This document shows positions 1,480-24,054 of a stretch of DNA of 32,000 nt, one piece after another. The stretch covers positions 1 through 32,000 of the forward strand of contig NZ_JAQFIQ010000019.1 of assembly GCF_029504745.1 (NCBI RefSeq), written 5' to 3'. How positions within the stretch are numbered: the stretch's first letter is position 1; every line of letters begins with the position of its first letter. The translations under genes and the position numbers were made by a program. The stretch comes from Breznakia sp. PF5-3 (lineage in GTDB: Bacteria; Bacillota_I; Bacilli_A; Erysipelotrichales; Erysipelotrichaceae). The notes under the pieces were generated by a model that worked only from the letters and a program-made list of their open reading frames with translations, ran no database searches and was not told the origin of the DNA.

Positions 1480-2409
1480 ATGACAAGTTTATTCTTATCG
1501 ATTCAGGATGCCGTAAGTCAAGGTGTTCTTTGGGGTGTGATGGCCTTAGGTGTATATATAACCTTTCGTATTTTAGATGTTGCAGATTTAACAGTTGATG
1601 GAAGTTTTGCTACTGGTGGGGCTGTATGTGCAATTATGATTACCAATGGTGTATCACCGATTATATCTTTGTTATTAGCGATTGTAGCAGGGTTTGTTGC
1701 AGGGTTAATCACAGGAGTATTAATTACAAAGTTTGAAATTCCAGCCATTTTAGCAGGAATACTAACCCAGATTGGGTTATATTCTATTAACATGCGAATT
1801 ATGGGAGAGCGTTCTAATTTACCACTTCTTCAAAATGAAACTTTATTTAAAAATATTAGTGATTTTACGGGACTTAGCATTGCTCATTCTACACTTTTAA
1901 TCGGTGCTGTTTTTGTAGCACTTGTAATTCTTGTGTTATATTGGTTTTTTGGTACAGAGATTGGTTCATCTATTCGTGCAACCGGAAATAATGAAAAGAT
2001 GGTATCTGCCTTAGGTGTTAATATTAATACAACCAAAATTCTAGGTTTAATGATAAGCAATGGTTTGATTGCTTTATCAGGAGCACTTGTGACACAGTCG
2101 CAAGGATATGCGGATGTGAAAATGGGGACTGGTGCAATCGTAATTGGTTTAGCATCAATTGTAATAGGAGAAGTATTGTTTGGAAGAAAGCAAAATTTTG
2201 GAATCCGTTTATTATCTATTGTAATTGGATCCGCAATTTATCGAATTATTATAGCAATTGTTTTAGAATTGGGATTAAATACAGATGATTTAAAATTGTT
2301 AACGGCGGTTTTAGTAGGTGTTGCATTGGTGATTCCTGTTTTATTAAACAGACAAAAACAAGTTCGTATGTATAAGAAACTTACGGGAAAGGAGTCTGAA
2401 AATGCTTAA
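1480..2409 (+). CDS. ABC transporter permease (COG4120-type, partner of the COG2984 binding protein)
   Basis: 309-aa polytopic hydrophobic protein. It lies directly downstream of the binding protein and overlaps the ATPase gene by 8 nt. Confidence 0.85.
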   Translation: MTSLFLSIQDAVSQGVLWGVMALGVYITFRILDVADLTVDGSFATGGAVCAIMITNGVSPIISLLLAIVAGFVAGLITGVLITKFEIPAILAGILTQIGLYSINMRIMGERSNLPLLQNETLFKNISDFTGLSIAHSTLLIGAVFVALVILVLYWFFGTEIGSSIRATGNNEKMVSALGVNINTTKILGLMISNGLIALSGALVTQSQGYADVKMGTGAIVIGLASIVIGEVLFGRKQNFGIRLLSIVIGSAIYRIIIAIVLELGLNTDDLKLLTAVLVGVALVIPVLLNRQKQVRMYKKLTGKESENA

Positions 2410-3202
2410 GATTAAAGGTGTAAGTAAGACCTTCAATGCAGGTACCGTGAATGAGAAAAAAGCACTTAACCAAATTGATTTGGAGTTAAATGAAGGTGAT
2501 TTTGTCACTGTTATTGGTGGTAATGGAGCAGGAAAAAGTACGGTGTTGAATATGATAGCGGGTGTTTATCCGATTGATTGTGGATATATTTATCTTGATC
2601 AAGAGAATATTTCATTATACCCAGAATATGAGCGAAGTAAGCTTATTGGAAGAGTGTTTCAAGATCCGATGATGGGAACTGCTGCAGATATGGCAATTCA
2701 AGAAAATCTTGCTATGGCCAATCGACGTGGTTTTAAAAGAGGTTTAAAATGGGGAATAAAACCCAGTGAAAAAGAGATGTTTAGAGAACGTCTTAAAAAA
2801 TTGGAGTTAGGATTAGAAGATCGATTAACTTCAAAGGTTGGATTGTTATCGGGTGGACAACGACAAGCGCTAACCCTTTTGATGGCAACATTACAAAAGC
2901 CGAAACTACTATTGCTTGATGAACATACAGCAGCATTAGACCCAAAAACGGCAAAGAAAGTTTTGCAGATTACAAAAGAAATTGTTGAAGAAGATCAATT
3001 GACAACATTGATGGTAACACACAACATGAAAGATGCGATTGCTTATGGAAATCGCTTGATTATGTTTCATGAAGGAAATATAATTTTTGATATTCGTGGA
3101 GAAGATAAAAAGAATTTAAAAGTATCGGATTTATTAGAAATGTTTGAGAATGCAGTAGGTGAAGAAATGGATAATGATACATTGTTATTATCAAAAGATT
3201 AA
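2402..3202 (+). CDS. ABC transporter ATP-binding protein (COG1101-type)
   Basis: Walker A GGNGAGKST, signature LSGGQRQ, Walker B LLLLDEHTAALD, H-loop VTHNM. RBS AAGGAG precedes ATG 2402. Confidence 0.9.
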   Translation: MLKIKGVSKTFNAGTVNEKKALNQIDLELNEGDFVTVIGGNGAGKSTVLNMIAGVYPIDCGYIYLDQENISLYPEYERSKLIGRVFQDPMMGTAADMAIQENLAMANRRGFKRGLKWGIKPSEKEMFRERLKKLELGLEDRLTSKVGLLSGGQRQALTLLMATLQKPKLLLLDEHTAALDPKTAKKVLQITKEIVEEDQLTTLMVTHNMKDAIAYGNRLIMFHEGNIIFDIRGEDKKNLKVSDLLEMFENAVGEEMDNDTLLLSKD

Positions 3203-5419: not shown

Positions 5420-6115
5420 CTATTCTATTATATTTCCATCTGTGGAAATAGTGGTAACTTGCCAAGGAATAAATTTACCGCTATTTTGTAAGGCTTGTTT
5501 TGCAGCATTTTCTAGCCCTCCACAACATGGGACTTCCATTCTCAGAATATGAATGCTTTTTATATTGTTGTTTTGAATGATTTGTGTTAGCTTTTCGCTA
5601 TAATCTCCTTCATCTAATTTTGGGCAACCAATAATTGTTACATGGTTGTGCATAAACTCTTGATGAAAGTTTGCATATGCATAGGCACAACAATCGGCAG
5701 CAATCAACACATTAGCATTTTCAAAATAAGGCGCTTGTACTGGCACTAATTTTATTTGGACTGGCCATTGTTGTAGTTGACTTTGTAGTTCTATTTGTGA
5801 TTTCTCACGAATATTTTCTTTTGTATGTAAAGCGCCATTAAATTGTATTGACGGACATTGATGAGTAGTGTTTTTTTTAGCTAAATGCTTTGCAACTGCC
5901 GCTTCATCATAACTAGCGGCTTCCCGGGTTTCAAATTGGATTGCTCCTGTAGGGCAAGAAGGTAAGCAGTCGCCTAACCCATCACAATAATCTTCACGAA
6001 TCAGCTTAGCTTTTCCATTCACCATAGCAATTGCTCCTTCATGACAGGCAACTGCGCAAAGCGCACAGCCATTACATTTATCTTCATCTATTTTAATAAT
6101 TTGTCTTGTTTCCAT
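5420..6115 (-). CDS. 2x[4Fe-4S] ferredoxin-domain protein with a Cys-rich C-terminal domain (FrdX-like)
   Basis: CNGCALCAVAC and CDGLGDCLPSCP are ferredoxin-type cluster motifs. The C-terminal domain carries ADCCAYAY, GCPKLD and VPCCGG motifs. Confidence 0.75.
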   Translation of the reverse strand: METRQIIKIDEDKCNGCALCAVACHEGAIAMVNGKAKLIREDYCDGLGDCLPSCPTGAIQFETREAASYDEAAVAKHLAKKNTTHQCPSIQFNGALHTKENIREKSQIELQSQLQQWPVQIKLVPVQAPYFENANVLIAADCCAYAYANFHQEFMHNHVTIIGCPKLDEGDYSEKLTQIIQNNNIKSIHILRMEVPCCGGLENAAKQALQNSGKFIPWQVTTISTDGNIIE

Positions 6116-6158: not shown

Positions 6159-6182
6159 TTACTATATTAAAAATGAAAAGTA

Positions 6183-6198
6183 TGTTGTTTTTACAACA
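6183..6198. promoter_or_regulatory. Perfect 16-bp palindrome TGTTGT-TTTT-ACAACA, a candidate Crp/Fnr-family operator
   Basis: Seen directly in the sequence. It lies between the predicted -10 and the RBS (AGAGGTGG, 6201-6208) of the Crp/Fnr gene, inside the divergent intergenic region. Confidence 0.4.
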
Positions 6199-6211
6199 AA
6201 AGAGGTGGATA

Positions 6212-6853
6212 ATGAATAAATTATTTCAAATGTTGTATAGTCATGAATTGTTTTCAGGAATGAGAAAAATAGAAATTGATGATATTTTATCTAAGTTAAG
6301 AAAAAAAGATTATGATCATGAAACTTTGATTTATGCAATTGGCGAAAAGCAATTTTCTATTGGAATGGTGTTGGTAGGAAATGTATCAATTAATAAAATT
6401 GATTATTGGGGAAATCGATCAATTATCGCAAAGTTAAAACAAGGTGAAATTTTTGCTGAAGCATTTGCATTTTCGGAATTAGATGAATTACCTGTTAATA
6501 TTGTTGCTGATAAAAATACGGAAGTATTGTTTATCAGTGTAGAACAATTTGTTTTTTTTGGTGTTAAATATCCTCAATTGATGAAAAACATGATGAAGAT
6601 ATTGGCTAAGAAGAATTTATATCTTACAAAAAAAATGGATGTGATAACAAAGCAGAGAATTCGTGATAAAGTGTTGTCATATTTGTCTGCACAGGCAGAG
6701 GAACATGGAATGTATACATTCACAATTCCATTGAATCGTAATGAGTTAGCTGATTTTTTATCGGTTGATCGAAGTGCTTTGTCGAATGAACTTAGTAAGA
6801 TGCAAAAAGAGGGTATCTTAACGTATCATAAAAATGTCTTTACTCTACTTTAA
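6212..6853 (+). CDS. Crp/Fnr-family transcriptional regulator (cNMP-binding-like domain plus C-terminal HTH); contains no cysteines
   Basis: The track ORF starts at 6173. I prefer ATG 6212, which follows AGAGGTGG. The earlier start would place the palindrome and the RBS inside the coding sequence. C-terminal HTH: RNELADFLSVDRSALSNELSKMQKEGIL. Confidence 0.8.
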   Translation: MNKLFQMLYSHELFSGMRKIEIDDILSKLRKKDYDHETLIYAIGEKQFSIGMVLVGNVSINKIDYWGNRSIIAKLKQGEIFAEAFAFSELDELPVNIVADKNTEVLFISVEQFVFFGVKYPQLMKNMMKILAKKNLYLTKKMDVITKQRIRDKVLSYLSAQAEEHGMYTFTIPLNRNELADFLSVDRSALSNELSKMQKEGILTYHKNVFTLL

Positions 6854-6873: not shown

Positions 6874-6901
6874 TTGACCTTTTACCAATATGGCTTATAT
6901 T
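6874..6901 (+). promoter_or_regulatory. Candidate promoter for the P-type ATPase operon
   Basis: TTGACC (6874-6879), 16-nt spacer, TATATT (6896-6901). This leaves a leader of about 110 nt. Confidence 0.4.
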
Positions 6902-7018: not shown

Positions 7019-9808
7019 ATGCAAGAGAGTGTAAAGAATGTATACAAGTTACAACCAAGTGATGTATACAAAGAATTAGGCTCTGATATTAAGGGATTAC
7101 AGTCGAGTAAAATAGTTGAATATCAAAGCAAATTTGGAAAAAATGTAATTCGAGAAGCAGAGCAAAAATCAATATGGAAAACATTTTTTAGTAATTTCAC
7201 AAGCTTGATGGCCATTTTGCTATGGTTTGGTGGAGGGATTGCTATTTTTGCTGATATGATGGAATTAGGTATTGCCATTTGGTTGGTAAATGTAATTAAT
7301 GGGGTATTCAGTTTCTGGCAAGAATTTCAAGCGGGAAAAGCAACGGATGCTTTGAAAAAAATGTTACCATCTTATGCACGAGTTTTACGTGATAATAGTG
7401 AACAGCAAGTCCTATCTGAGGATTTATTGCCAGGAGATGTGATGTTGATTGAAGAGGGAGACAAAATCTCTGCAGATGCAAGACTTATATCTTCTACAGA
7501 TTTGCAAATTAATCAATCAGCTTTAACAGGTGAATCTAACCCTGTACATAAACTTGAAGATGCGGTATTAAAAGATGACTTGGCAAAATTTGAAATTCCT
7601 AACTTAATCTTTGCTGGGACAACTGTTGCAAGTGGTAGTGGTAAAGCGGTTGTAACAGCAATTGGAATGGAAACAGAGTTTGGGAAAATTGCAAATTTAA
7701 CACAAAGTATGAAGGATGAGAAGAGCCCATTACAAAAAGAGTTAGATAATCTAACAAAACAAATTTCAATTATTGCGTTAAGTATTGGTATATTCTTCTT
7801 TGTCTCTGCTATATTTTTTGTTCATGATCCAATTGCAAAATCGTTTATCTTTGCCCTTGGAATGATTGTTGCGTTTATTCCTGAGGGATTATTACCAACA
7901 GTTACATTATCTTTAGCAATGGCAGTACAAAGAATGGCAAAAGAACATGCTTTAGTCAAAAAACTATCAGCAGTTGAGACATTAGGATCCACCTCTGTTA
8001 TCTGTTCTGATAAAACAGGAACTTTAACACAAAATGAAATGACAGTAAATACCCTTTGGTTAGCTGAAAATGAATACAATGTCACAGGATTAGGCTATTC
8101 AAGCGAAGGATCTGTAATGTTGAAAGATAAAGCTGTAAAAGCCAAGGATGATAAAGATTTAAATCTTTTATTATCTGGTGCTAGTTTATGTAGTAATGCA
8201 AGGGTTGTACCACCAAATGAAGAAAATGATCGTTATACCGTATTGGGAGACCCTACCGAGGCATGTTTGAATGTAGTTGCTGAAAAAGCAGGCATTAATT
8301 TAGAAACATTGGAAAATGATGCTGTGCGGATTCGTGAACTTCCTTTTGATTCACGAAGGAAAAGGATGACAACCATTCATCAGCTGAAGGAAGAAATTGA
8401 TGGCACAAAGCGAATTGCCTTTGTAAAAGGTGCACCAAAAGAAGTGATGGAATTAAGTGCGACAATTTTAATCAATGGGAAAAAAGAAGCAATGCCATTA
8501 TCGATGCGTAAAGAAATAATGGCAGCTAATGATAAATATGCTAGAGATGGGTTACGTGTATTAGCAGTTGCATATCGACCAATTGATAAAGATGCAAATT
8601 TACCAACTGCGCTTAGTGCGTATACACCAGAGCTTGTAGAGCAAGAATTAGTATTTGTTGGGTTGGTAGTTATGTCAGATCCACCAAGACCTGAAGTAGC
8701 AGAGGCGGTAAAGCTTTGTCATAAAGCAAGTATTCGCATTGTTATGATTACAGGAGATTATGGATTAACTGCTGAAAGCATTGCTAAACGTATTGGTATC
8801 GTTGAAGGGGAACATCCGCGAATTGTAAGTGGCTTGGAGTTGGAAACCTTAAGTGATGATGATTTAGAATCCGCATTAAAAGAGGAAGTAATCTTTGCTC
8901 GTGTTGCTCCTGAACAAAAATATCGAGTTGTGACAATGTTGCAAAAGATGGGGCATACAGTGGCGGTTACAGGAGATGGAGTAAATGATTCTCCAGCTCT
9001 TAAAAAAGCTGATATTGGTGTGGCAATGGGAATCACTGGAACGGATGTGGCAAAGGAAGCTGCTGATATGATTTTAACAGATGATAATTTTGCTTCTATT
9101 GTAAAAGCTGTTGAAGAAGGCCGTGCAGTATATAGCAATATTCAAAAATTCTTATTATACATATTAAATAGTAATATGGCAGAGGCAATTCCATCTGCAG
9201 CGTTTCTCTTTTCTGGTGGTCTTATTCCATTACCTTTAACAGTAATGCAAATTTTATCAATTGACTTAGGAACAGATATGTTACCAGCTTTGGGATTGGG
9301 AACAGAACTTCCTGAAGAAGGAATTATGGATCAACCACCACGTTCTAAAAAAGAACGTTTGCTAAATAAGAAAATTGTTGTTAAAGCATTTTTATGGTAT
9401 GGAATGATTGCTTCTGTAATTTCAATGCTTTGTTATTTCTATGTGAATATAAGCTATGGATGGCCTAATATACCACTTGCTGCAAGTGGTATACCTTATC
9501 GTGAAGCAACAACGATGACCCTGGCAGCAATTATCTTTTGTCAGATTGGAGCAGTGCTTAATTGTCGAACAACAAAACAATCTGTATTTAAAGTAGGAAT
9601 CTTTAAAAATAAGAAAATTATGTTTGGTATCGTATTTGAAATTCTTTTATTAGCATTGTTGATGTATGTTCCTTTCTTTCAAGAAATTTTCAATACTGCA
9701 CCATTAGGAATAAAAGAATGGATTATATTGTGTATTATTCCATTCCCTGTGTTGGGAATTGAAGAATTGAGAAAATATTTTATAAGAAAAAAGGAAAGAG
9801 GTGAATAA
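7019..9808 (+). CDS. Cation-translocating P-type ATPase, type II, with Na,K/H,K-ATPase (IIC)-like core motifs
   Basis: I prefer ATG 7019 after GGGGGAGG; the track start at 6983 is a TTG. Motifs: TGES (7526-7537), ICSDKTGTLTQNEM (DKTGT at 8009-8023), MITGD, TGDGVNDSPALKKADIGVAMG. TM4 is IPEGLLPTVTLSLA, TM5 is NSNMAEAIP and TM6 is IDLGTDMLPALGLG. Confidence 0.9.
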   Translation: MQESVKNVYKLQPSDVYKELGSDIKGLQSSKIVEYQSKFGKNVIREAEQKSIWKTFFSNFTSLMAILLWFGGGIAIFADMMELGIAIWLVNVINGVFSFWQEFQAGKATDALKKMLPSYARVLRDNSEQQVLSEDLLPGDVMLIEEGDKISADARLISSTDLQINQSALTGESNPVHKLEDAVLKDDLAKFEIPNLIFAGTTVASGSGKAVVTAIGMETEFGKIANLTQSMKDEKSPLQKELDNLTKQISIIALSIGIFFFVSAIFFVHDPIAKSFIFALGMIVAFIPEGLLPTVTLSLAMAVQRMAKEHALVKKLSAVETLGSTSVICSDKTGTLTQNEMTVNTLWLAENEYNVTGLGYSSEGSVMLKDKAVKAKDDKDLNLLLSGASLCSNARVVPPNEENDRYTVLGDPTEACLNVVAEKAGINLETLENDAVRIRELPFDSRRKRMTTIHQLKEEIDGTKRIAFVKGAPKEVMELSATILINGKKEAMPLSMRKEIMAANDKYARDGLRVLAVAYRPIDKDANLPTALSAYTPELVEQELVFVGLVVMSDPPRPEVAEAVKLCHKASIRIVMITGDYGLTAESIAKRIGIVEGEHPRIVSGLELETLSDDDLESALKEEVIFARVAPEQKYRVVTMLQKMGHTVAVTGDGVNDSPALKKADIGVAMGITGTDVAKEAADMILTDDNFASIVKAVEEGRAVYSNIQKFLLYILNSNMAEAIPSAAFLFSGGLIPLPLTVMQILSIDLGTDMLPALGLGTELPEEGIMDQPPRSKKERLLNKKIVVKAFLWYGMIASVISMLCYFYVNISYGWPNIPLAASGIPYREATTMTLAAIIFCQIGAVLNCRTTKQSVFKVGIFKNKKIMFGIVFEILLLALLMYVPFFQEIFNTAPLGIKEWIILCIIPFPVLGIEELRKYFIRKKERGE

Positions 9809-9810
9809 AG

Positions 9811-10461
9811 ATGAAAGTAATTATAGTAGGAAGCGGACGTATGGGATCTGGTCTTGTAAAACAACTGACGAAGGAGAATCACAAGGTTACGGTAATTGAT
9901 ACTAATGAAGACGTATTAAAGGAAACAGCAAAAAATGCTCAGTTTACAGCAGTAGTGGGAATTGGGTTTGATAAAGATGTTTTAGAAAAAGCTGGAATTA
10001 AAAGTGCTGATGCATTGGTTAGCTGTACCAATAGCGATGAAACCAATGCCTTAATTGCTAGAATTTCAAAAAATATGTATCATGTTCCACGTGTAATTGC
10101 TCGTTTGTTTGATCCTGACAAAGCAAAAATTTATAGCGCTTTAGGAATTGAAACAATTTCGACAACATCATGGGGGATTAACCGTGCTAGTGAACTTATT
10201 AATTATAGTGAACTGGATACGATTATATCCGTTGGAAGTGGGGAAGTAGAGATTGTGAAAATTGAAGTACCAGCATTATTGGTAGGTAGAACGATTGAAG
10301 AAATAAATGTTATTGGTGAAATTCGAGTGATTTCAGTTTATCGAAACAATAAAGCATTTATTCCAACGAGTGGTAGTGTTTTGCAGGCAAATGATATTTT
10401 ATATATCAGTGTTCTTTCAAATTCGATAAAGCGATTAAAAACGCTTTTAGGATTACATTAG
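9811..10461 (+). CDS. TrkA/KtrA-type RCK protein (TrkA-N Rossmann plus TrkA-C), paralog 1
   Basis: MKVIIVGSGRMGSGL carries the GxGxxG motif. 216 aa with a C-terminal TrkA-C-like segment. The ATG is 2 nt after the ATPase stop. Confidence 0.85.
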   Translation: MKVIIVGSGRMGSGLVKQLTKENHKVTVIDTNEDVLKETAKNAQFTAVVGIGFDKDVLEKAGIKSADALVSCTNSDETNALIARISKNMYHVPRVIARLFDPDKAKIYSALGIETISTTSWGINRASELINYSELDTIISVGSGEVEIVKIEVPALLVGRTIEEINVIGEIRVISVYRNNKAFIPTSGSVLQANDILYISVLSNSIKRLKTLLGLH

Positions 10462-10471
10462 GAGGTGTATC

Positions 10472-11131
10472 ATGAAAGTAATTGTTATTGGTGGAGGACA
10501 AGTAGGTTCTTATGTTGCCTCAATCTTGCTTAAGCATGATTGTGAAGTAAAGATTATTGAGAATCGAAAGGAAATCCTAAAGAAATTAAAAAATGAGTTT
10601 GCACCTGAGATGTTAATTGAAGGTGATGGTACCGATCCAGTAATGTTGGAAGAAGCAGGAATTGCCAATACGGAATGTGTTGTAGCGGTTACAGGAGCAG
10701 ATGAGGTAAACTTGGTTGCTTCAACAATCACAAAATATGAATATGGAATTGAAAGAGTAATCGCCCGTGTGAATCATCCTAAAAATGAGTGGTTATTTAC
10801 TTTGGAAATGGGAGTGGATGTAAAAGTGAATCAAGCAGAACTATTGGCAAGACTAGTTGTTGATGAAATTGATTTGAAAAACATTTTGACATTGATGAAG
10901 ATAAATCGTGGTGATTATTCCATTGTACAAATGAATGTTTCAGGTGGTTCAAAAGCAGATGGGGCAATTATAAAAGATTTAGATATTCCAGAGAAGTTTG
11001 TTTTCATCTCAATTATTCGTAATCATGAAGTACTCATTCCTAAAGGGGATACGAAATTACAAAGTGGAGATAATATCTTGGCACTTACGGATTCAAATGG
11101 GCAAAAAGTTGTAAATGAGCTCTTAGGATAA
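10472..11131 (+). CDS. TrkA/KtrA-type RCK protein (TrkA-N plus TrkA-C), paralog 2
   Basis: MKVIVIGGGQVGSYV carries the GxGxxG motif. 219 aa. AGGAGG RBS sits in the 10-nt gap after paralog 1. Confidence 0.85.
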   Translation: MKVIVIGGGQVGSYVASILLKHDCEVKIIENRKEILKKLKNEFAPEMLIEGDGTDPVMLEEAGIANTECVVAVTGADEVNLVASTITKYEYGIERVIARVNHPKNEWLFTLEMGVDVKVNQAELLARLVVDEIDLKNILTLMKINRGDYSIVQMNVSGGSKADGAIIKDLDIPEKFVFISIIRNHEVLIPKGDTKLQSGDNILALTDSNGQKVVNELLG

Positions 11132-11175
11132 TAAAATAGGGTTTTATAATGATTATATAGTAAATATTTTTATAA

Positions 11176-11202
11176 AAAATGAACCTTTTAAGGTTCATTT
11201 TC
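11176..11202 (+). terminator. Rho-independent terminator ending the ATPase-trkA-trkA operon
   Basis: ATGAACC (11179-11185) pairs with GGTTCAT (11192-11198). An A-run lies upstream and TTTT downstream. Confidence 0.7.
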
Positions 11203-13412: not shown

Positions 13413-14258
13413 GTGAAAGAAAGAACAATTAAAAAGCTAGTTAAAGGGCAACATGCGATTGATGGTGCTGGAGTACATTTAGTAAGGGTTATTGGATATA
13501 ATGATGTGAAAGATTTTGATCCTTTTTTAATGTTAGATTCTTTTGATTCTAAACAACCCGATGATTATATTAAGGGGTTCCCTATGCATCCACACCGTGG
13601 GATAGAAACGGTTACTTATTTAATCAAGGGTAATATTGAACATCAAGATAGTCTTGGTAATAAAGGTAGTATTGATAATGGGGAAAGTCAGTGGATGAGT
13701 GCTGGCAGTGGGATTTTACATCAAGAGATGCCACAGCCAAGTGAACATTTATTGGGGTTGCAACTATGGATTAATCTACCACGAAAAGATAAAATGAGTA
13801 ATCCACACTATATGGATATCAGGACAAATGATATTCAAGTAATGAAAGAAGAACATGCTACGATTCGTATTGTATCAGGAGAATATAATGGGATGAAAGG
13901 TATTCAACCTAGATATGTTGATGCTTATATATTTGATGTAAGTGTTGATGAAAATTATGAAGTTACAATACCTACTCGCGAAGTAGATAATGTTTTTATT
14001 TTTACTATTCAAGGAGACATAGAAATTGGTGGAAAACACATCGAAGAGAAAACAGCAGTTTTATTTGATATGGGAGATAAAATCCGTATCAAAGGAAAAT
14101 CAAAAGACACTAGATTCATTTACTTTGCTGGAAAACCACTTCATGAGCCAATTGCTTGGGGTGGACCAATTGTAACTAACACACGTGAAGAATTGGAATT
14201 AGCTTTTGATGAATTGAATAACGGAACATTTATTAAGCATAATGCTATGGAAAGGTAA
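13413..14258 (+). CDS. Pirin-family (bicupin) protein
   Basis: FPMHPHRGIETVTYLIKG and SAGSGILHQE are pirin metal-site motifs. GTG start follows AGGAGG. Confidence 0.85.
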   Translation: MKERTIKKLVKGQHAIDGAGVHLVRVIGYNDVKDFDPFLMLDSFDSKQPDDYIKGFPMHPHRGIETVTYLIKGNIEHQDSLGNKGSIDNGESQWMSAGSGILHQEMPQPSEHLLGLQLWINLPRKDKMSNPHYMDIRTNDIQVMKEEHATIRIVSGEYNGMKGIQPRYVDAYIFDVSVDENYEVTIPTREVDNVFIFTIQGDIEIGGKHIEEKTAVLFDMGDKIRIKGKSKDTRFIYFAGKPLHEPIAWGGPIVTNTREELELAFDELNNGTFIKHNAMER

Positions 14259-14270
14259 TGAGGTGATAAA

Positions 14271-14732
14271 ATGTTAGAAGTAGGACAAAAAGCGTTTGAT
14301 TTTGATTTATTTGATAAGGATGGAATAAAACATAAATTAAGTGATTATCTTGGGAAAAAGGTAGTCGTGTATTTCTATCCCAAAGATGATACTCCAGGAT
14401 GTGTGAAAGAAGCTTGTGCATTTCGAAACGCATTTCAAGACTTTAAAGATAGAGATGTTGTCGTTATTGGAATAAGTAAAGATTCTCAAGAATCGCATCG
14501 GAAATTTGCTGAGAAATATAATTTACCATTTATTATTCTATCAGATCCTGAGTTAGAAGCGATTCAAGCGTATGGAGTATGGGTTGAAAAGAATATGTAT
14601 GGTAAAAAATATATGGGAGTTAATCGATCAACTTTTATTGTTGATGAACAAGGAGAAATCATAAAGGTATATAAAAAAGCTACCCCAGATAAGAATGCTG
14701 AAGAAATCATTGCTTTCTTAGAAGGGAAATAA
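14271..14732 (+). CDS. bcp: Thiol peroxidase Bcp (peroxiredoxin, AhpC/TSA family)
   Basis: YFYPKDDTPGCVKEAC carries the peroxidatic Cys motif. 153 aa. It starts 12 nt after the pirin gene and has a GAGGTG RBS. Confidence 0.85.
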   Translation: MLEVGQKAFDFDLFDKDGIKHKLSDYLGKKVVVYFYPKDDTPGCVKEACAFRNAFQDFKDRDVVVIGISKDSQESHRKFAEKYNLPFIILSDPELEAIQAYGVWVEKNMYGKKYMGVNRSTFIVDEQGEIIKVYKKATPDKNAEEIIAFLEGK

Positions 14733-14761: not shown

Positions 14762-17086
14762 TTATTCTGAACGCAATGCTTCAACTGGATCTTTTTTTGC
14801 TGCTAGTTTAGCGGGGATAAAACCACCAATCAAAGTAAGAATTAGGCTAATTGCAATTAGAATAAGTGCATGGATTGGATTTAATTTAGCTACGTTTGCT
14901 AATCCAGACATATTTTCAATAATTGCATTGGCAGGAATTGTAAGTAATTGTGCAATACCAATACCTATCAAACCAGAACATAATCCAATAATAAATGTTT
15001 CAGCATTGAAAACACGTGTAATATCTTTTTTTCTTGCTCCAAGTGCACGTAAGATACCAATTTCTTTCGTTCTTTCTAATACTGATATATATGTGATAAT
15101 TCCAATCATAATACTTGATACAATTAAGGAAATGGCTGAGAAAGCAATTAGTACAATAGTGATAGCACTCATAATATCTCCAGAGAGTGAAGAAATCATT
15201 TCGGCCATATCTGTATATTGAATAGTGTCTTCTGCATCTTTTCCTTCATTGTATGCATCTAGGTAATCTAAAACATGGTCTTTTGATTCGAAATCCTTAG
15301 GATAGATGTAAACTGCAACAGGTGTTGATTCAGCTCCTAAATATCCCATCATTGTTTCTTTTGTATTTGTACTACCGTCTTTAGTATCAAAAGGTTGTCC
15401 AGTAAGGACATTGTAATCTCTTTTTTCTTGTTCTTTTACAATTTCTGAGTTTTGGTTTTTTTCAATGATTGTATCGATAACAGCATTTGTATATGCTAAT
15501 CCACTACCATTTGTAATCATTTCTTTATCTTCTTTTCCCCGAATGATTGCTTGTATTTTTAAAGTAATAGATTTTTCACTCTTATACATTTTTTCATAAT
15601 CGGTATTGATCATAAAATGATTGCCAACGTTGTTATAGTAATCTTCATTTAAGATAACCTTTACTTCTTTGCTCATAATTTCGTCAAAAGTTAAAGATTC
15701 AATATCCTCATCATCAAAACCAAGTTGTTTTAATGCGCTTTTTGATAATTGATTTTTTGCATCTACTTGAAGTACCAAACCTGGTTTTGTTTCATCTACT
15801 TCTCCTGCTAAAGTATCATACAAGCTTTCAATAATTCCAGAGTTGTCATTGTTATTTGGTTCAGTAGGTAAGAGTGTCCATTGGTCAAATTGACTTGAGA
15901 AATCAATTAAACTGTAACCATTTTTATCACTGTAATTAATGATATTCATTGCAGTGGTTTTTTGATATGAAATACCAGATAAATATTTTTGATCAAGTTT
16001 CTCAATATATTCGATATATTCTGGCGTGATGTTGTTTGTATGCATCATCGTATCACGCATATCCTCTTGAGCATAAATTTTCTTCTTATTCGTATACTTT
16101 TTCAAATCCTCATCACCCTCACCAGAAGCATTAGCTAGAGTTTCAGAATCCATTTGCATGGATTGTGTAGAAACAGTAATTGGCATTTGGGACAAAGAAT
16201 CTTTTTCAAATGCATCAATTTCCATTTGGAACCCATTGGATAGAGCTAATATTAAAGCAATTCCAATAATTCCTATACTAGATGCGAAGGAGGTTAAGAT
16301 GGTTCTTCCTTTTTTTGTTCGTATGTTATTGAAAGATAATTTTAGAGCAGCAATATAGCTCATTGCCGTTTTTACAATATTAAATTGTGAGCTATCTTCT
16401 TCGTCTTTTTCGATAGGATTAGAATCACTTAATACCTCACCATCTTTTAATTCAATAATGCGATTTGCATATGTATTTGCTAACTCTGGATTATGGGTAA
16501 CCATAATAACAAGTTTATCTTTGGCAATTTCGCGAATCAATTCCATGATTTGTACACTGGTTTCACTATCAAGTGCACCTGTAGGTTCATCCGCGAGAAT
16601 AACATCAGGGTCATTTGCTAGTGCTCTAGCAATGGCAACCCTTTGCATCTGTCCACCAGATAATTGATTAGGCTTTTTATGTACATGGTCTTTTAAACCA
16701 ACTTTTTCCAGTACTTCCATAGCTTTTGCTTTTCTAGCAGCAGAACCAATACCACTAAGTGTCATCCCCATTTCTACATTAGCTAAGATAGAAATATGAG
16801 TAATTAGATTATAGCTTTGAAAGATAAAGCCAATACAGTTATTGCGATAGGCATCCCAATCCTTATCTTTGAAGCTTTTTGTACTTTTGTTGTTGATAAT
16901 TAAATCACCTGAATCATAACGATCCAGTCCACCAATAATGTTTAACATCGTAGTTTTTCCACTACCAGACTGTCCAAGTACTGCCACAAATTCATTTTTT
17001 CTAAAAGAAAGGGAAACATTTTTTAAGGCATCTTGGGTGAAGTCTCCAGTTTTATAGCTTTTTTTAATTCTATTCAGTTTTAACAT
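14762..17086 (-). CDS. Fused ABC ATPase plus FtsX-family permease (MacB-type) with a large extracytoplasmic domain
   Basis: N-terminal NBD: GQSGSGKTT, LSGGQMQRVAIARA, ILADEPTGALD, VTHNP. This is followed by TM1, a hydrophilic domain of about 340 aa, and three C-terminal TMs with an FtsX-type tail. GGAGG RBS. Confidence 0.85.
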   Translation of the reverse strand: MLKLNRIKKSYKTGDFTQDALKNVSLSFRKNEFVAVLGQSGSGKTTMLNIIGGLDRYDSGDLIINNKSTKSFKDKDWDAYRNNCIGFIFQSYNLITHISILANVEMGMTLSGIGSAARKAKAMEVLEKVGLKDHVHKKPNQLSGGQMQRVAIARALANDPDVILADEPTGALDSETSVQIMELIREIAKDKLVIMVTHNPELANTYANRIIELKDGEVLSDSNPIEKDEEDSSQFNIVKTAMSYIAALKLSFNNIRTKKGRTILTSFASSIGIIGIALILALSNGFQMEIDAFEKDSLSQMPITVSTQSMQMDSETLANASGEGDEDLKKYTNKKKIYAQEDMRDTMMHTNNITPEYIEYIEKLDQKYLSGISYQKTTAMNIINYSDKNGYSLIDFSSQFDQWTLLPTEPNNNDNSGIIESLYDTLAGEVDETKPGLVLQVDAKNQLSKSALKQLGFDDEDIESLTFDEIMSKEVKVILNEDYYNNVGNHFMINTDYEKMYKSEKSITLKIQAIIRGKEDKEMITNGSGLAYTNAVIDTIIEKNQNSEIVKEQEKRDYNVLTGQPFDTKDGSTNTKETMMGYLGAESTPVAVYIYPKDFESKDHVLDYLDAYNEGKDAEDTIQYTDMAEMISSLSGDIMSAITIVLIAFSAISLIVSSIMIGIITYISVLERTKEIGILRALGARKKDITRVFNAETFIIGLCSGLIGIGIAQLLTIPANAIIENMSGLANVAKLNPIHALILIAISLILTLIGGFIPAKLAAKKDPVEALRSE

Positions 17087-18186: not shown

Positions 18187-18384
18187 AGTTTATAATCTCC
18201 AATAGTAAGTATTATATCATAAAGTGCCGATGTTTATTGAGTAAAATAAAGGTTATGAAAAAAGTATGAAAACGCTTGAAAAAAAGAGGTAAAATTTTCA
18301 GTTTTATCTGTGTCAAAACGAATTAATAATAGGTATAATAGATGCATAGCGTTCGTAAATAGAAGAAGCATACAGGGGGTTATT

Positions 18385-20517
18385 ATGAGCTTAGAAAATG
18401 TTAGAATTATTAAGAAAGACAATACACTTGAAAGGTTTAATATCAATAAAGTTGTCGTGGCTGTCAATAAGTCAGCTTTTCGTACACTTTATTCTTTTAA
18501 GAGTGAGGAAATTGATCGTATTTGTGATGACGTTGAAACAAAAGTGTCAGCAATAAATCGTGACAAAATAACGATTCAGGAGATGCACAATATCGTGGAA
18601 GCAGCTTTAGAGATGACAAATCCTAAGGTAGCTAAGAGTTATCGTGATTATCGTAATTACAAGAGTGATTTTGTACAAATGTTAGATGATGTGTATAAGA
18701 AATCACAAAGTATCATGTATATTGGAGATAAAGAAAATTCAAATACTGATAGTGCTTTGGTTTCAACAAAGCGTAGTCTGATTTTTAATGAGCTAAATAA
18801 AGAGTTATATAAGAAGTTTTTTTTAACGACGGAAGAGTTGCAAGCAGCACGTGAAGGATATATTTATATTCACGATATGAGTGCTCGCCGTGATACGATG
18901 AACTGTTGTTTATTTGATGTTGAAAATGTATTGAGCGGTGGTTTTGAGATGGGAAATCTCTGGTATAACGAACCAAAGACATTAGATGTTGCCTTTGATG
19001 TAATTGGGGATATCGTACTTAGTGCTGCTTCCCAACAATATGGAGGTTTTACGGTTCCTAATGTAGACTTGATTTTAAAACCTTATGCAGAGAAATCTTA
19101 TAAGTTGTATGTTGATAAATACTTAGCTTTAGGATTAGATAAAAATAAAGCTGAAGAAATTTCGGTCAAGGACGTAGAAAGAGATTTCGAACAAGGTTTC
19201 CAAGGTTGGGAATATAAATTTAATTCAGTTTCTAGTAGCCGTGGAGATTATCCATTCATCACTGTTACTATTGGTACAGGAACAAGTCGTTTTGAAAAGA
19301 TGGCAAATATCCAAATGCTAAATGTTAGAAAAGAAGGACAAGGGAAGAAGGGGCATAAAAAACCTGTTTTATTTCCAAAGATTGTTTTCTGCTATGATAA
19401 GAATCTTCATGGTGAAGGTAAACCATTGGAAGATGTATTTGAAGCTGGAATCGCTTGTTCTGCTAAAACGATGTATCCAGATTGGTTGAGTTTAAGTGGT
19501 GAAGGATATGTTGCAGATATCTATAAGCAATATGGAGAAATTATATCGCCAATGGGATGTCGTGCATTCTTATCACCATATTATCGTCGTGGTGGTATGA
19601 AACCTGCAGATGAAAACGATAGTCCATATTATGTGGGGCGCTTTAATATTGGGGCAATCTCACTTCATTTACCAATGATCTTGGCGAAAGCCCAACAAGA
19701 AAGTCGTGATTTTTATGAAGTGCTTGATTACTATTTAGAATTAATCCGTAATTTGCACTTGCGTACATATGATTATTTAGGTGAAATGAAAGCAAGTGTA
19801 AATCCTTTGGCATATTGTGAAGGTGGATTCGCAGGTGGCAATTTAGGACTTCATGATAAGATTAAACCTTTATTAAAGAGTGCAACAGCATCGTTTGGAA
19901 TTACAGCGTTAAATGAACTTCAGGAGTTATATAATAAAAAATCTTTAGTAGAAGATGGAGAATTTGCAATTAAAACTTTAGAGTATATCAATAAACGGGT
20001 AAATGATTTTAAAGAAGAAGATGGTCGTTTATATGCAATCTATGGTACACCAGCAGAAAACTTATGTGGGCTTCAAGTGCAACAATTTAGAAAAAAATAT
20101 GGGGTTATTGAAAATGTAAGTGATCGTGAATATGTAAGTAATAGTTTTCACTGTCATGTTTCAGAGGAGATAACACCAATTGAGAAACAAAACTTAGAAA
20201 AGCGTTTCTGGGATTTATCCAATGGTGGTAAAATTCAGTATGTTAAGTATCCAATCGGATATAATACAGGTGCAATTAAAACATTGGTTCGTAGAGCAAT
20301 GGATTTAGGTTTTTATGAAGGTGTGAATTTATCGCTATCATATTGTGATGATTGTGGTCACGAGGAATTAGAGATGGATGTATGTCCAAACTGTGGTAGT
20401 TCAAACTTGACGAAGATTGATCGTATGAATGGGTACCTTTCTTATTCAAGAGTTAAGGGAGATACACGTTTAAATGATGCGAAAATGGCAGAAATCAAAG
20501 AGAGGAAATCAATGTAA
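18385..20517 (+). CDS. nrdD: Anaerobic ribonucleoside-triphosphate reductase (class III), NrdD
   Basis: I prefer ATG 18385 after AGGGGG; the track start at 18310 is a GTG with an implausible basic extension. It has an N-terminal ATP-cone-like segment (IIKKDNTLERFN), a C-terminal Zn ribbon CDDCGHE...CPNCGS, and a glycyl-radical tail RMNGYLS. Confidence 0.9.
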   Translation: MSLENVRIIKKDNTLERFNINKVVVAVNKSAFRTLYSFKSEEIDRICDDVETKVSAINRDKITIQEMHNIVEAALEMTNPKVAKSYRDYRNYKSDFVQMLDDVYKKSQSIMYIGDKENSNTDSALVSTKRSLIFNELNKELYKKFFLTTEELQAAREGYIYIHDMSARRDTMNCCLFDVENVLSGGFEMGNLWYNEPKTLDVAFDVIGDIVLSAASQQYGGFTVPNVDLILKPYAEKSYKLYVDKYLALGLDKNKAEEISVKDVERDFEQGFQGWEYKFNSVSSSRGDYPFITVTIGTGTSRFEKMANIQMLNVRKEGQGKKGHKKPVLFPKIVFCYDKNLHGEGKPLEDVFEAGIACSAKTMYPDWLSLSGEGYVADIYKQYGEIISPMGCRAFLSPYYRRGGMKPADENDSPYYVGRFNIGAISLHLPMILAKAQQESRDFYEVLDYYLELIRNLHLRTYDYLGEMKASVNPLAYCEGGFAGGNLGLHDKIKPLLKSATASFGITALNELQELYNKKSLVEDGEFAIKTLEYINKRVNDFKEEDGRLYAIYGTPAENLCGLQVQQFRKKYGVIENVSDREYVSNSFHCHVSEEITPIEKQNLEKRFWDLSNGGKIQYVKYPIGYNTGAIKTLVRRAMDLGFYEGVNLSLSYCDDCGHEELEMDVCPNCGSSNLTKIDRMNGYLSYSRVKGDTRLNDAKMAEIKERKSM

Positions 20518-21008
20518 TGAGATATCATAATATCACAAAGGATGATATGTTGAATGGTGAAGGTTTACGCTCTGTATTGTGGTTAGCAGGTTGTTCTCAT
20601 GCGTGTAAAGGTTGTCATAATCCTGTTACATGGAGTTTGCAAGGTGGTTTGGCATTTGATGAAGATGCTAAAGCAGAGTTGTTTGCATCCTTACATCATG
20701 ATTACATAGATGGTGTTACTTTGAGTGGAGGAGACCCGCTTCATCCAGAAAATCGTAAAGATGTTCACGATTTAGTGAAGGAACTAAAAGAAAAGTTTCC
20801 TAAAAAGACAATTTGGTTATATACTGGATACGAGTATGCTGAAATCGTTGATTTGGATTTGCTTGCTTATATTGATGTGGTAGTGGATGGAAAATTTATT
20901 GAAGAACAATTAAGTCCAAACACACATTGGGTAGGAAGTAGCAATCAAAAAGTGATTGATGTACAAGCTAGTAGAGCATTGAAACAAATTGTTTTATACA
21001 AGGAATAG
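20517..21008 (+). CDS. nrdG: Anaerobic RNR activating protein (radical SAM), NrdG
   Basis: GCSHACKGCHNP is the CxxxCxxC cluster motif. 163 aa. The start overlaps the nrdD stop (TAATG). Confidence 0.9.
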   Translation: MRYHNITKDDMLNGEGLRSVLWLAGCSHACKGCHNPVTWSLQGGLAFDEDAKAELFASLHHDYIDGVTLSGGDPLHPENRKDVHDLVKELKEKFPKKTIWLYTGYEYAEIVDLDLLAYIDVVVDGKFIEEQLSPNTHWVGSSNQKVIDVQASRALKQIVLYKE

Positions 21009-21016
21009 GAGAACAA

Positions 21017-21520
21017 ATGAGAAGGATAGCACAGTTTTATAAAGTTAGTTTTGAAGAGTTTAGAAAAGCATTTGCTGATTTAGATCAAACTCAGGTAGAG
21101 CGCATGTATGATGCAATCGTATTGCCTAAGCGAGCAACCTCAGGAAGTGCAGGATATGATTTTTTTACACCATTCGCATTTACTTTAAAGCCAAATGAAA
21201 CGATTAAGATTCCAACTGGGATTCGCGCAGAGATGGAAGTAGATTGGGTATTGAAATTATATCCAAGAAGTGGTTTGGGATTTAAATATCGTTTACAGTT
21301 AAATAATACAGTGGGAATTATCGATGCAGATTATTTTCACAGTGATAATGAAGGTCATATTTTTGCGAAAATTACCAATGATTCAAACACTGGTGAAGAA
21401 TTGCATTTAGATGCAGGCGATGGTTTTATGCAAGGTATCTTTGTAGAGTATGGAATCACTCATGATGATGTTGTATCAGAGATTCGCAATGGTGGATTCG
21501 GAAGTACAAGTAAGAAATAA
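21017..21520 (+). CDS. dut: dUTP diphosphatase (trimeric dUTPase family) with an N-terminal extension of about 35 aa
   Basis: All five dUTPase motifs are recognisable: SAGYD, PRSG, GIIDADY, MQGIF and RNGGFGSTS. Confidence 0.8.
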   Translation: MRRIAQFYKVSFEEFRKAFADLDQTQVERMYDAIVLPKRATSGSAGYDFFTPFAFTLKPNETIKIPTGIRAEMEVDWVLKLYPRSGLGFKYRLQLNNTVGIIDADYFHSDNEGHIFAKITNDSNTGEELHLDAGDGFMQGIFVEYGITHDDVVSEIRNGGFGSTSKK

Positions 21521-23590: not shown

Positions 23591-23604
23591 TTTAGGAGGT
23601 GTTC

Positions 23605-24054
23605 ATGTCCGATGGAAATAGGGTACACAAATTGAGAAGATTGATGTACCGATTTAAGAATGTTAGACGCCCTGAGAAAGGCAAAGATCATATGCGTATG
23701 CACGATATGATGATGCTTGTGGGGATTCAAAAAGTAGGAAATGGAGAGGCGGTAAAAATGTCACAGCTATCAAGCTATTTCAAGATTACTGCACCTGCTG
23801 TATCACAGATTATGCGCAAGTTGGAAAATCAGGGATATATCGAGAGAATTATTCGTGATGAAGATCGTAGGAGTGTGTATGTGAAAGTCAGTGATAAGGC
23901 GATAAAGGAAATCAAGATGATTCAAGCACATATGGATAAAACGTTAATTGATATGATTGATTATCTAGGAGAAGAGGATACAGATGAATTGATTCGTTTG
24001 TTGGATAAAGTGTTGGATTATATGGACAAGCAGGAAGGAGTTAGGAAATGCTAA
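23605..24054 (+). CDS. MarR-family transcriptional regulator
   Basis: ATG 23605 is 5 nt after AGGAGG. Winged-helix segment MSQLSSYFKITAPAVSQIMRKLENQGYIERIIRDEDRRSVYVKVSDKA. Confidence 0.8.
   Translation: MSDGNRVHKLRRLMYRFKNVRRPEKGKDHMRMHDMMMLVGIQKVGNGEAVKMSQLSSYFKITAPAVSQIMRKLENQGYIERIIRDEDRRSVYVKVSDKAIKEIKMIQAHMDKTLIDMIDYLGEEDTDELIRLLDKVLDYMDKQEGVRKC

Follow-up and report, generated by a model that had tools for sequence, protein, structure and literature searches.

An operon for a P-type pump and two RCK proteins

The DNA considered here is a stretch of 32,000 nucleotides (nt) from Breznakia sp. PF5-3 (contig NZ_JAQFIQ010000019.1, positions 1 to 32,000), hereafter referred to as the window, which harbors a three-gene unit encoding a P2-type cation ATPase followed by two proteins of the RCK (TrkA/KtrA-type) family. 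The latter are designated T1 and T2, for the first and second RCK protein genes 3′ of the pump, while surveyed loci of other genomes are denoted by L and a number. The ATPase matches, at 100% identity, a Breznakia sp. PF5-3 (Erysipelotrichaceae) protein that carries the NCBI name “Ca2+-transporting ATPase”; the comparative evidence presented below, namely, synteny, ion-site residues, and homologies, supports the proposal of a first-pass annotation, made from the sequence alone, that this is a K+-handling pump under RCK control.

The ORF (open reading frame) listing and direct reading of the sequence place the ATG of the ATPase gene at 7019, with GGGGGAGG just 5′ of it, and its TAA stop codon at 9806-9808, which leaves a gap of 2 nt before the ATG of T1 (9811). 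The T1 stop codon (10459-10461) is overlapped by an AGGAGG motif and followed ten nt on by the ATG of T2 (10472). Downstream of T2, the sequence AAAAUGAACCU-UUUA-AGGUUCAUUUU is predicted to form a hairpin, the folding energy of the surrounding 56 nt being −11.9 kcal/mol (z = −3.1 versus shuffles); a consensus terminator scan returned no match at the operon end, as the U-tract of this hairpin consists of 4 U. The pump, T1, and T2 genes (Table 1) are one operon, and all that the first-pass annotation had stated regarding the intergenic spacing, the AGGAGG motif, and the terminator held on re-reading. Its observation that a TrkH/KtrB/Kup-type membrane gene is absent likewise stands for the Pfam-scanned ORFs of the window, in which no such domain was detected, the ORFs at 13413-14258, 14271-14732, 21017-21520, and 23599-24054 (150-280 amino acids [aa]) lying outside that scan.

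Table 1. Features of the pump operon in the window
Feature	Position	Strand	Basis
P2-type cation ATPase, 929 aa	7019-9808	+	Pfam, PDB alignments
RCK protein T1, 216 aa, TrkA_N + TrkA_C	9811-10461	+	Pfam
RCK protein T2, 219 aa, TrkA_N + TrkA_C	10472-11131	+	Pfam
Stem-loop (11-bp stem, 4-nt loop, short U-tract), probable intrinsic terminator	11176-11201	+	Folding
Candidate sigma-70-type promoter, TTGACC, 16 nt, TATATT, ~118 nt 5′ of the ATPase start	6874-6901	+	10/12 consensus matches

The number of promoter-like sites in the region equals the shuffle expectation, and the candidate promoter is, therefore, a consensus match rather than evidence of function. No riboswitch or leader was detected 5′ of the pump gene, either in the window or in 11 orthologous loci, the sole Rfam match being an unrelated T-box (224-445). 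Furthermore, no small membrane ORF that might specify a beta subunit, and no plausible ORF for any other small subunit (KdpF, FXYD, or beta-like), was found within or flanking the operon.

Conservation of the gene order and kinship of the pump

The first-pass annotation had described the ATPase-T1-T2 arrangement from a single strain. A survey of one genome per GTDB species yielded 80 loci, whose ATPases share 70% to 38% identity with the query and whose ORFs were searched with the T1 and T2 proteins of the window. The clade of interest was defined as the 58 loci with an ATPase that is at least ~48% identical, of which 49 were evaluable (at least 1.4 kb of downstream sequence), and the three genes occur in this order in 44 of the 49. 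Half of these operons (22/44) show a 4-nt overlap (ATGA) of the ATPase stop with the start of T1, and the ATPase-T1 gap does not exceed 30 nt in 38/44. Linked loci are distributed across Bacillota, Chloroflexota, Actinomycetota, Desulfobacterota, Binatia, and one Methanoregulaceae archaeon, and include representatives of Clostridia, Erysipelothrix, Bacillus, Streptococcus ferus, Lacrimispora, Anaerolineae, Coriobacteriia, other Actinomycetota, Geobacter, and Syntrophobacteraceae. RCK genes were found at none of the 17 evaluable outgroup loci, whose Ca-ATPase-like pumps are at most 42% identical to the query. A reciprocal survey of metagenome contigs, anchored on an alignment of T2 orthologues, recovered T1 in 73/73 contigs with upstream room and the ATPase in 49/49 with further room. 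Synteny thus extends far beyond this strain, and a restriction to it, which the first-pass annotation had named as grounds for refutation, does not apply. Pairwise distances co-vary between the ATPase and T1 (Mantel r = 0.81) and between the ATPase and T2 (r = 0.86), a finding which shows co-inheritance, not contact.

The family is large, with 7,997 matches at E ≤ 1e-50 in a protein search and more than 578 T2-type matches in metagenomes, and the public names of near-identical pumps disagree, ranging from Ca2+-transporting, Mg-transporting, or K/Na efflux ATPase to “haloacid dehalogenase” and P-type Ca2+ transporter type 2C. Individual loci display additional features: a second P2 ATPase paralogue of the same clade lies directly 3′ of T2 at L042:10209-12998 and 5′ of the operon, after kdpDE, at L012:2108-4930; a gene for an MgtC/DUF4010-family membrane protein starts 8 nt 3′ of a short T2 in a Binatia metagenome-assembled genome (MAG) (L033:9903-11195) and may represent a fourth operon member; and the pump gene of Companilactobacillus versmoldensis (L020:5914-8730), which has no RCK genes nearby, is broken into two ORFs and appears to be frameshifted or a pseudogene.

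Membership of the pump in the P2 group is evident from its N-terminal, E1-E2, Cation_ATPase, Hydrolase, and C-terminal domains, all above the Pfam cut-offs, and from the readable catalytic motifs TGES, DKTGT, KGAPE, DPPR, MxTGD, and TGDGVND, where DKTGT contains the catalytic D331 and is invariant across the clade. Placement within the group was based on profile scores, pairwise scores, and a control pump, the RCK-less outgroup ATPase of L062. Against PDB entries, the full-length protein scores 521 bits with Na,K-ATPase alpha, 494 with LMCA1, 483 with SPCA, and 463 with SERCA. For the cytoplasmic domains, the Ca pumps are about as close as Na,K-ATPase, and it is the membrane region spanning transmembrane helices (TM) 5 to 10 that separates the candidates, with 100-107 bits for Na,K/H,K-ATPases, 80 for SERCA, 78 for SPCA, and 49 for LMCA1. 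The order is reversed for the control, which scores 683 bits with SPCA, 677 with LMCA1, 574 with SERCA, and 450 with Na,K-ATPase. By these sequence comparisons, Na,K/H,K-ATPases, and not Ca pumps, are the nearest relatives of the membrane core, in agreement with the earlier view that the core lies nearer to type IIC than to SERCA/PMCA; a placement among Ca2+ or Mg2+ pumps, which the first-pass annotation had named as fatal to its reading, was not obtained once the pump was properly aligned.

The M4, M5, and M6 motifs of the pump, IPEGLLPTVTLSLA, NSNMAE, and IDLGTDMLPA, align with their Na,K-ATPase counterparts, whose residue numbers (in parentheses below) are assigned after the pig alpha1 sequence. 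All K+ site I/II residues are kept, namely, E289 (E327), S718 (S775), N719 (N776), E722 (E779), D749 (D804), and D753 (D808), as are Y714 (Y771), Q842 (Q923), and E874 (E953). The K+ site residues are conserved clade-wide, with S replaced by G or H in two members (L013 and L031). Changed residues are N717 for T774, A845 for D926, and I875 for E954; almost every orthologue has N, A, or M at the position of D926. Over M7-M8 (query residues 816-834), the Na,K-ATPase alignment is interrupted. The earlier claim that the ion-coordinating residues are conserved is thus borne out for K+ sites I and II and fails for Na+ site III, of which two residues are missing (D926 to A and E954 to I). Since both these residues and a beta-subunit gene are lacking, the pump is best described as “X+/K+-like” and not as a 3Na/2K pump.

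SERCA and other Ca pumps have PEGLPAV in M4 and N.xTDGLPA in M6, with N796 where the clade has D, and the M5 sequence of SERCA is SSNVGE. Because SERCA shares the S, N, and E in question, the argument that the first-pass annotation had drawn from these M5 residues does not discriminate between the families, while M4 and M6 do. The window pump, with PEGLLPTVT in M4, IDLGTDMLPA in M6, and profile scores below cut-off, does not conform to the P2A Ca2+-ATPases. Among 79 aligned pumps, all RCK-linked ones combine M4 PEGLLPTVT with M6 (I/V)DLGTD..PA, whereas most RCK-less relatives (L062-L079) carry the SERCA-like PE(G/A)LPAV and N.xTDGLPA. This difference suggests that RCK linkage tracks ion-site chemistry, with the exception of the outgroup members L059-L061 and L064, which lack RCK genes and have intermediate or Na,K-like M6 motifs.

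The RCK pair, its genomic surroundings, and published counterparts

T1 and T2 both carry TrkA_N and TrkA_C domains above the Pfam cut-offs and are, therefore, members of the RCK/TrkA-KtrA family. Their Rossmann nucleotide-binding motifs are GSGRMG with D30 in T1 and GGGQVG with E30 in T2, and both the GxGxxG motif and the acidic, ribose-binding residue that ends beta2 are retained across 45 orthologues of either protein. Along the TrkA model NF007039 (446 positions), T1 covers positions 1-220 and T2 positions 230-444. The best PDB match of both is Vibrio TrkA (107 bits for T1 and 103 bits for T2), followed by TM1088A for T1 (72 bits) and TM1088B for T2 (93.5 bits); PDB entry 3L4B, which contains TM1088A and TM1088B, is a hetero-octameric RCK ring. 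By homology, T1 corresponds to the N-terminal half of TrkA and to TM1088A, and T2 to the C-terminal half and to TM1088B, which favors a T1/T2 hetero-oligomer of the kind that had been suggested for this operon. The T1 and T2 genes are, moreover, neighbors in all cases.

The RCK_C domain is always kept in T1 but missing from 9 of the 45 T2 orthologues. These short T2 proteins (133-150 aa, RCK_N alone) occur at L005, L006, L008, L015, L033, L047, L049, L050, and L053, in Erysipelothrix, Culicoidibacterales, Coriobacteriia, Binatia, and several Actinomycetota, in all of which T1 is full length. The RCK_C domain of T1 matches the KhtT antiporter subunit weakly and marginally (E = 0.01), and for this reason no claim is made regarding individual c-di-AMP-contacting residues.

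Relatives of the RCK pair are also encountered beside other K+ transporters. One T1 relative (34% identical) again lies in an ATPase-T1-T2 operon, while another (32% identical) overlaps by 4 nt with a preceding gene for a KimA homologue (488 bits to PDB 6S3K), and the T2-like gene located 3′ of this KimA-linked T1-like gene specifies a protein with 44% identity to T2 of the window. The KimA, T1-like, and T2-like arrangement was observed in metagenome/Logan contigs (L164:145-3465 and L165). KimA itself binds c-di-AMP, and we know of no dedicated RCK pair for this transporter. Among the T1 relatives, furthermore, a tandem TrkA and a further RCK gene adjoin two TrkH genes. As related pairs adjoin both KimA and TrkH, the two-RCK module is portable between K+ transporters, its other partners being importers. 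TrkH was not found among the 32 multi-pass membrane ORFs scanned in the flanks of the 58 clade loci.

Clustering of the flanking genes revealed that KdpD/KdpE-type regulators of the response to K+ limitation adjoin the operon in 7 loci. In a Lacrimispora MAG (L010, 5986-13667), ATPase, T1, T2, kdpD, and kdpE follow one another on one strand, and no kdpABC is present in the 6-kb flanks, which suggests that KdpDE may control the pump in place of Kdp; a gene for a FokI-like restriction enzyme lies upstream at this locus. In Bacillus marasmi (L009:3540-10115) and a Bacillus sp. MAG (L058:244-7665), a truncated KdpD-like kinase of DUF4118-HisKA-HATPase architecture, without the KdpD N-terminal sensor domain, is encoded together with a response regulator just 5′ of the pump. 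L058 also encodes a KimA homologue and has a single divergent RCK gene, which is located upstream, not downstream, of the pump. A kdpFABCDE operon adjoins at the Geobacter and Anaerolineales loci, and kdpDE and the second pump paralogue are both found upstream in the Anaerolineaceae locus L012. Taken together, these Kdp associations represent at least four independent cases.

A counterpart of the operon has already been named in Streptococcus mutans, where a three-gene unit bears the annotation of a putative K+ system, Trk1 (trkB-trk-pacL) (PMC7082836). Smu.1562 is CabPA, a c-di-AMP-binding protein of the TrkA family (PMC10281425, PMC5575661, PMC10243994), the two S. mutans proteins are reported to have Kd values of 7.8 and 1.2 µM (PMC10243994), and CabPA has been studied with respect to VicR and biofilm, the system being treated as “Trk-like.” The link to the clade is provided by S. 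ferus (L019), in which an ATPase with 64% identity to the query precedes T1 and T2, and by a published S. mutans trkB primer (PMC2957427), whose encoded peptide, AYVAKQL, is the same as that formed by residues 13-19 of T2 from S. ferus. On the strength of this gene order and one peptide match, and thus via S. ferus rather than S. mutans sequence, T1 would correspond to CabPA (Smu.1562), T2 to trkB (Smu.1561), and the pump to PacL, and the c-di-AMP ligand guessed at in the first-pass annotation gains literature backing through CabPA.

No statement that the RCK proteins regulate a P-type ATPase was found in the S. mutans literature, and no paper on RCK control of any P-type ATPase was found in the literature searched. 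In a 2023 review by Palmgren, where RCK partners go unmentioned, the role of prokaryotic P2C pumps is listed among the open questions (PMC10654040). The earlier impression that the arrangement is uncharacterized is, therefore, correct for the pump-RCK coupling, for which no paper was found, and incorrect insofar as the cluster is already annotated as Trk1. The gene cluster is named and both of its parts belong to known families, while the coupling of RCK proteins to a P-type ATPase, the breadth across phyla, the tie to IIC-type ion sites, and the KdpDE link are undescribed in the literature searched.

Elsewhere in the window, a gene for a Crp/Fnr-family regulator (6173-6853, forward strand) ends 165 nt 5′ of the pump gene and is divergent from a 4Fe-4S protein gene (5420-6115, reverse strand). 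The T-box leader mentioned above (128 bits) lies 5′ of an ABC transporter operon specifying a substrate-binding protein (484-1470), a permease (1480-2409), and an ATPase (2402-3202). A 774-aa MacB-like fusion of an ABC ATPase domain and an FtsX-type permease is encoded at 14762-17086 on the reverse strand, and the anaerobic ribonucleotide reductase NrdD (with ATP-cone) and its activase NrdG are encoded at 18310-21008, which fits an anaerobic host.

Proposed mechanism, alternatives, and related systems

It is probable, in our assessment, that the operon specifies a K+-transporting, most likely importing, P2-type pump with two Na,K-like sites, regulated by a T1/T2 RCK hetero-oligomer that senses nucleotides and c-di-AMP; the transported ion, its direction, the pump-RCK contact, and the sign of regulation are all deduced from sequence and genomic context. 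In the E1 state, the M4, M5, and M6 carboxylates E289, E722, D749, and D753 would bind a cytoplasmic counter-ion, H+ or Na+, and D331 would then be phosphorylated. In E2P, the counter-ion would be released outside and up to two K+ bound at the equivalents of sites I and II (S718, N719, E722, D749, D753, and E289), with dephosphorylation bringing K+ in. The stoichiometry is not expected to be 3Na:2K, since Na+ site III is absent. T1 and T2 are presumed to co-assemble in the manner of the TrkA halves or of TM1088A and TM1088B, each RCK_N binding an adenine or nicotinamide nucleotide and the RCK_C of T1 binding c-di-AMP, by analogy with CabPA of S. mutans. The RCK assembly would dock on the pump and throttle it according to energy and K+/osmotic status, probably inhibiting it at high c-di-AMP concentrations, as occurs with other K+ importers.

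Several observations weigh against this proposal. RCK regulators also control K+ efflux systems, and the RCK link is, therefore, indicative of K+ or monovalent-cation handling and not of direction. It is not obvious how a symmetric RCK ring might engage a P-type ATPase, which is usually monomeric. No pump-RCK fusion was present among the top 150 T1 relatives in a search of 1.84 billion representatives, the long matches being tandem TrkA, and no clade-specific N- or C-terminal docking tail was evident when RCK-linked and RCK-less pumps were compared. The pump stands without adjacent RCK genes at five evaluable loci, i.e., those of three Lactobacillaceae (which cluster together and include one with a frameshifted pump), Lactovum, and one Anaerolineaceae, which imply at least three losses of the RCK genes; the regulator would thus be dispensable or encoded elsewhere, and not strictly obligatory. 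A full kdpFABCDE operon is the immediate neighbor in three of the KdpDE cases. S. mutans is reported to take up K+ mainly through Trk2 rather than Trk1 (PMC7082836). Finally, the pump reaches no curated NCBIfam subfamily cut-off, and its best full-length score is with the PMR1 Ca2+ model TIGR01522 (641 bits, below the cut-off of 798), ahead of the IIC model TIGR01106 (620 versus a cut-off of 946), the SERCA-type model TIGR01116 (582 versus 703), and the IID model (451).

The main alternative, which we regard as unlikely, although deserving of consideration, is co-expression without contact, whereby the pump would export Na+ (or H+), T1 and T2 would gate a TrkH, KtrB, or KimA encoded elsewhere, and the shared operon would serve the joint production of Na+ extrusion and K+ uptake. 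RCK genes frequently lie apart from the gene of their membrane partner, as is the case for E. coli trkA and B. subtilis ktrC, and the ntp Na+-ATPase operon of E. hirae carries the KtrB-like gene ntpJ, which furnishes precedents for such a scenario. The existence of lineages that keep the pump without RCK genes is compatible with it, as is the T2-like protein beside KimA, because of which the RCK subfamily is not exclusive to the ATPase. This explanation is, however, difficult to align with the ATGA overlap of pump and T1 in half of the operons, the gene order that is invariant across phyla, and the failure to find TrkH in the flanks of the clade loci. At the KimA and TrkH loci, moreover, the RCK pair also directly adjoins the membrane gene expected to be its target, and the one TrkH listed for S. 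mutans, SMU_1709, lies next to a TrkA of its own, SMU_1708 (PMC7082836).

The remaining explanations concern the transported ion or its direction. RCK-regulated efflux of monovalent cations, in which Na+ or K+ would be expelled by a pump resembling fungal ENA (P2D) that RCK proteins open under ionic stress, appears improbable to us. Its attraction lies in the control of the efflux systems Kef, KhtTU, and CpaA by RCK/KTN domains, in the designation of several homologues by JGI/NCBI as “potassium/sodium efflux P-type ATPase,” and in the score of the IID model, to which may be added the induction of S. mutans pacL and trkB under conditions read as osmotic stress (PMC2957427). That IID score is, however, well under those of the IIC and PMR1 models, the equivalents of the K+ counter-ion residues S775, N776, E779, D804, and D808 are all kept, the adjacency of KdpDE points to K+ limitation, and TrkH and KimA, the other partners of the RCK module, are importers. 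Very little probability is assigned to an ordinary Ca2+ (or Mg2+) P2A pump next to functionally unrelated trkA genes: the NCBI name of the identical protein and the top rank of the PMR1-type model would be in keeping with such a pump, yet the latter score falls below its cut-off, M6 has D in place of the N796 of Ca pumps, M4 reads PEGLLPTVT and not PEGLPAV, TM5-10 rank Na,K/H,K-ATPases over all Ca pumps, and RCK genes occur at none of the evaluable loci of Ca-type relatives.

Returning to the proposed RCK-regulated K+ pump, a more far-reaching generalization is that the clade constitutes a large class of primary K+ pumps that spans phyla, occurring in anaerobic bacteria as well as some archaea, and in which a beta-less ATPase with two ion sites of the Na,K-ATPase kind is gated directly by a two-subunit RCK ring sensing c-di-AMP and adenine nucleotides, an extension we put forward tentatively and with somewhat less than even confidence. 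Channels, Trk/Ktr systems, and antiporters are known targets of RCK/KTN regulators, and the pump would, if this holds, be the first RCK-controlled P-type ATPase, a direct RCK-pump complex representing a new mode of regulation for these enzymes. It would also represent a fourth class of c-di-AMP-controlled bacterial K+ importer and a plausible prokaryotic relative of the lineage behind the Na,K- and H,K-ATPases, and structural and evolutionary studies would gain a simple, beta-free bacterial model that has K+ sites of the Na,K-ATPase type. In S. mutans, the c-di-AMP receptor CabPA would be reassigned to pump control, and CabPA phenotypes may then act through PacL.

The known systems with which the operon may be compared each share part of its composition. 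The alpha subunits of Na,K- and H,K-ATPases (P2C/IIC) provide the best PDB match and the M4 PEGLL.TVT and M6 IDLGTDM.PA motifs, but the window pump is without their third Na+ site (D926 being A, or N in many orthologues, and E954 being I), has no beta or FXYD-like gene beside it, and departs from them at the M7-M8 alignment break. The methanogen P2C ATPases (Palmgren 2023, PMC10654040) are likewise prokaryotic, functionally uncharacterized, and endowed with Na,K-like ion sites, although all three Na+ and both K+ sites are reported to be kept in their case, in contrast to the present clade, which is without site III. With TrkAH/KtrAB, the operon has in common TrkA-family RCK proteins with intact Rossmann motifs, T1 and T2 matching the two halves of a tandem TrkA, whereas the adjacent membrane protein is a P-type ATPase, and no TrkH (PF02386) was detected in the window or in the clade flanks scanned. 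The TM1088A:TM1088B pair of Thermotoga maritima (3L4B) also consists of two separately encoded RCK proteins, one of which can be without RCK_C; the sometimes-short subunit is here the TM1088B-like T2, and a T1/T2 octamer would be the analogous assembly.

The Trk1 system of S. mutans appears, via S. ferus, to be the same three-gene unit. KdpFABC with KdpDE resembles the proposed system in that ATP-driven K+ uptake is based on a P-type ATPase, and KdpD/KdpE genes adjoin the operon in the loci described above; KdpFABC, however, combines the channel-like KdpA with a P1A ATPase, while in the proposed system ion transport would fall to one 10-TM P2 pump, with the RCK proteins exerting post-translational control. 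KimA (APC family, 6S3K), a homologue of which is associated with a T1-like/T2-like pair through a 4-nt overlap, differs from the pump in being a secondary transporter.

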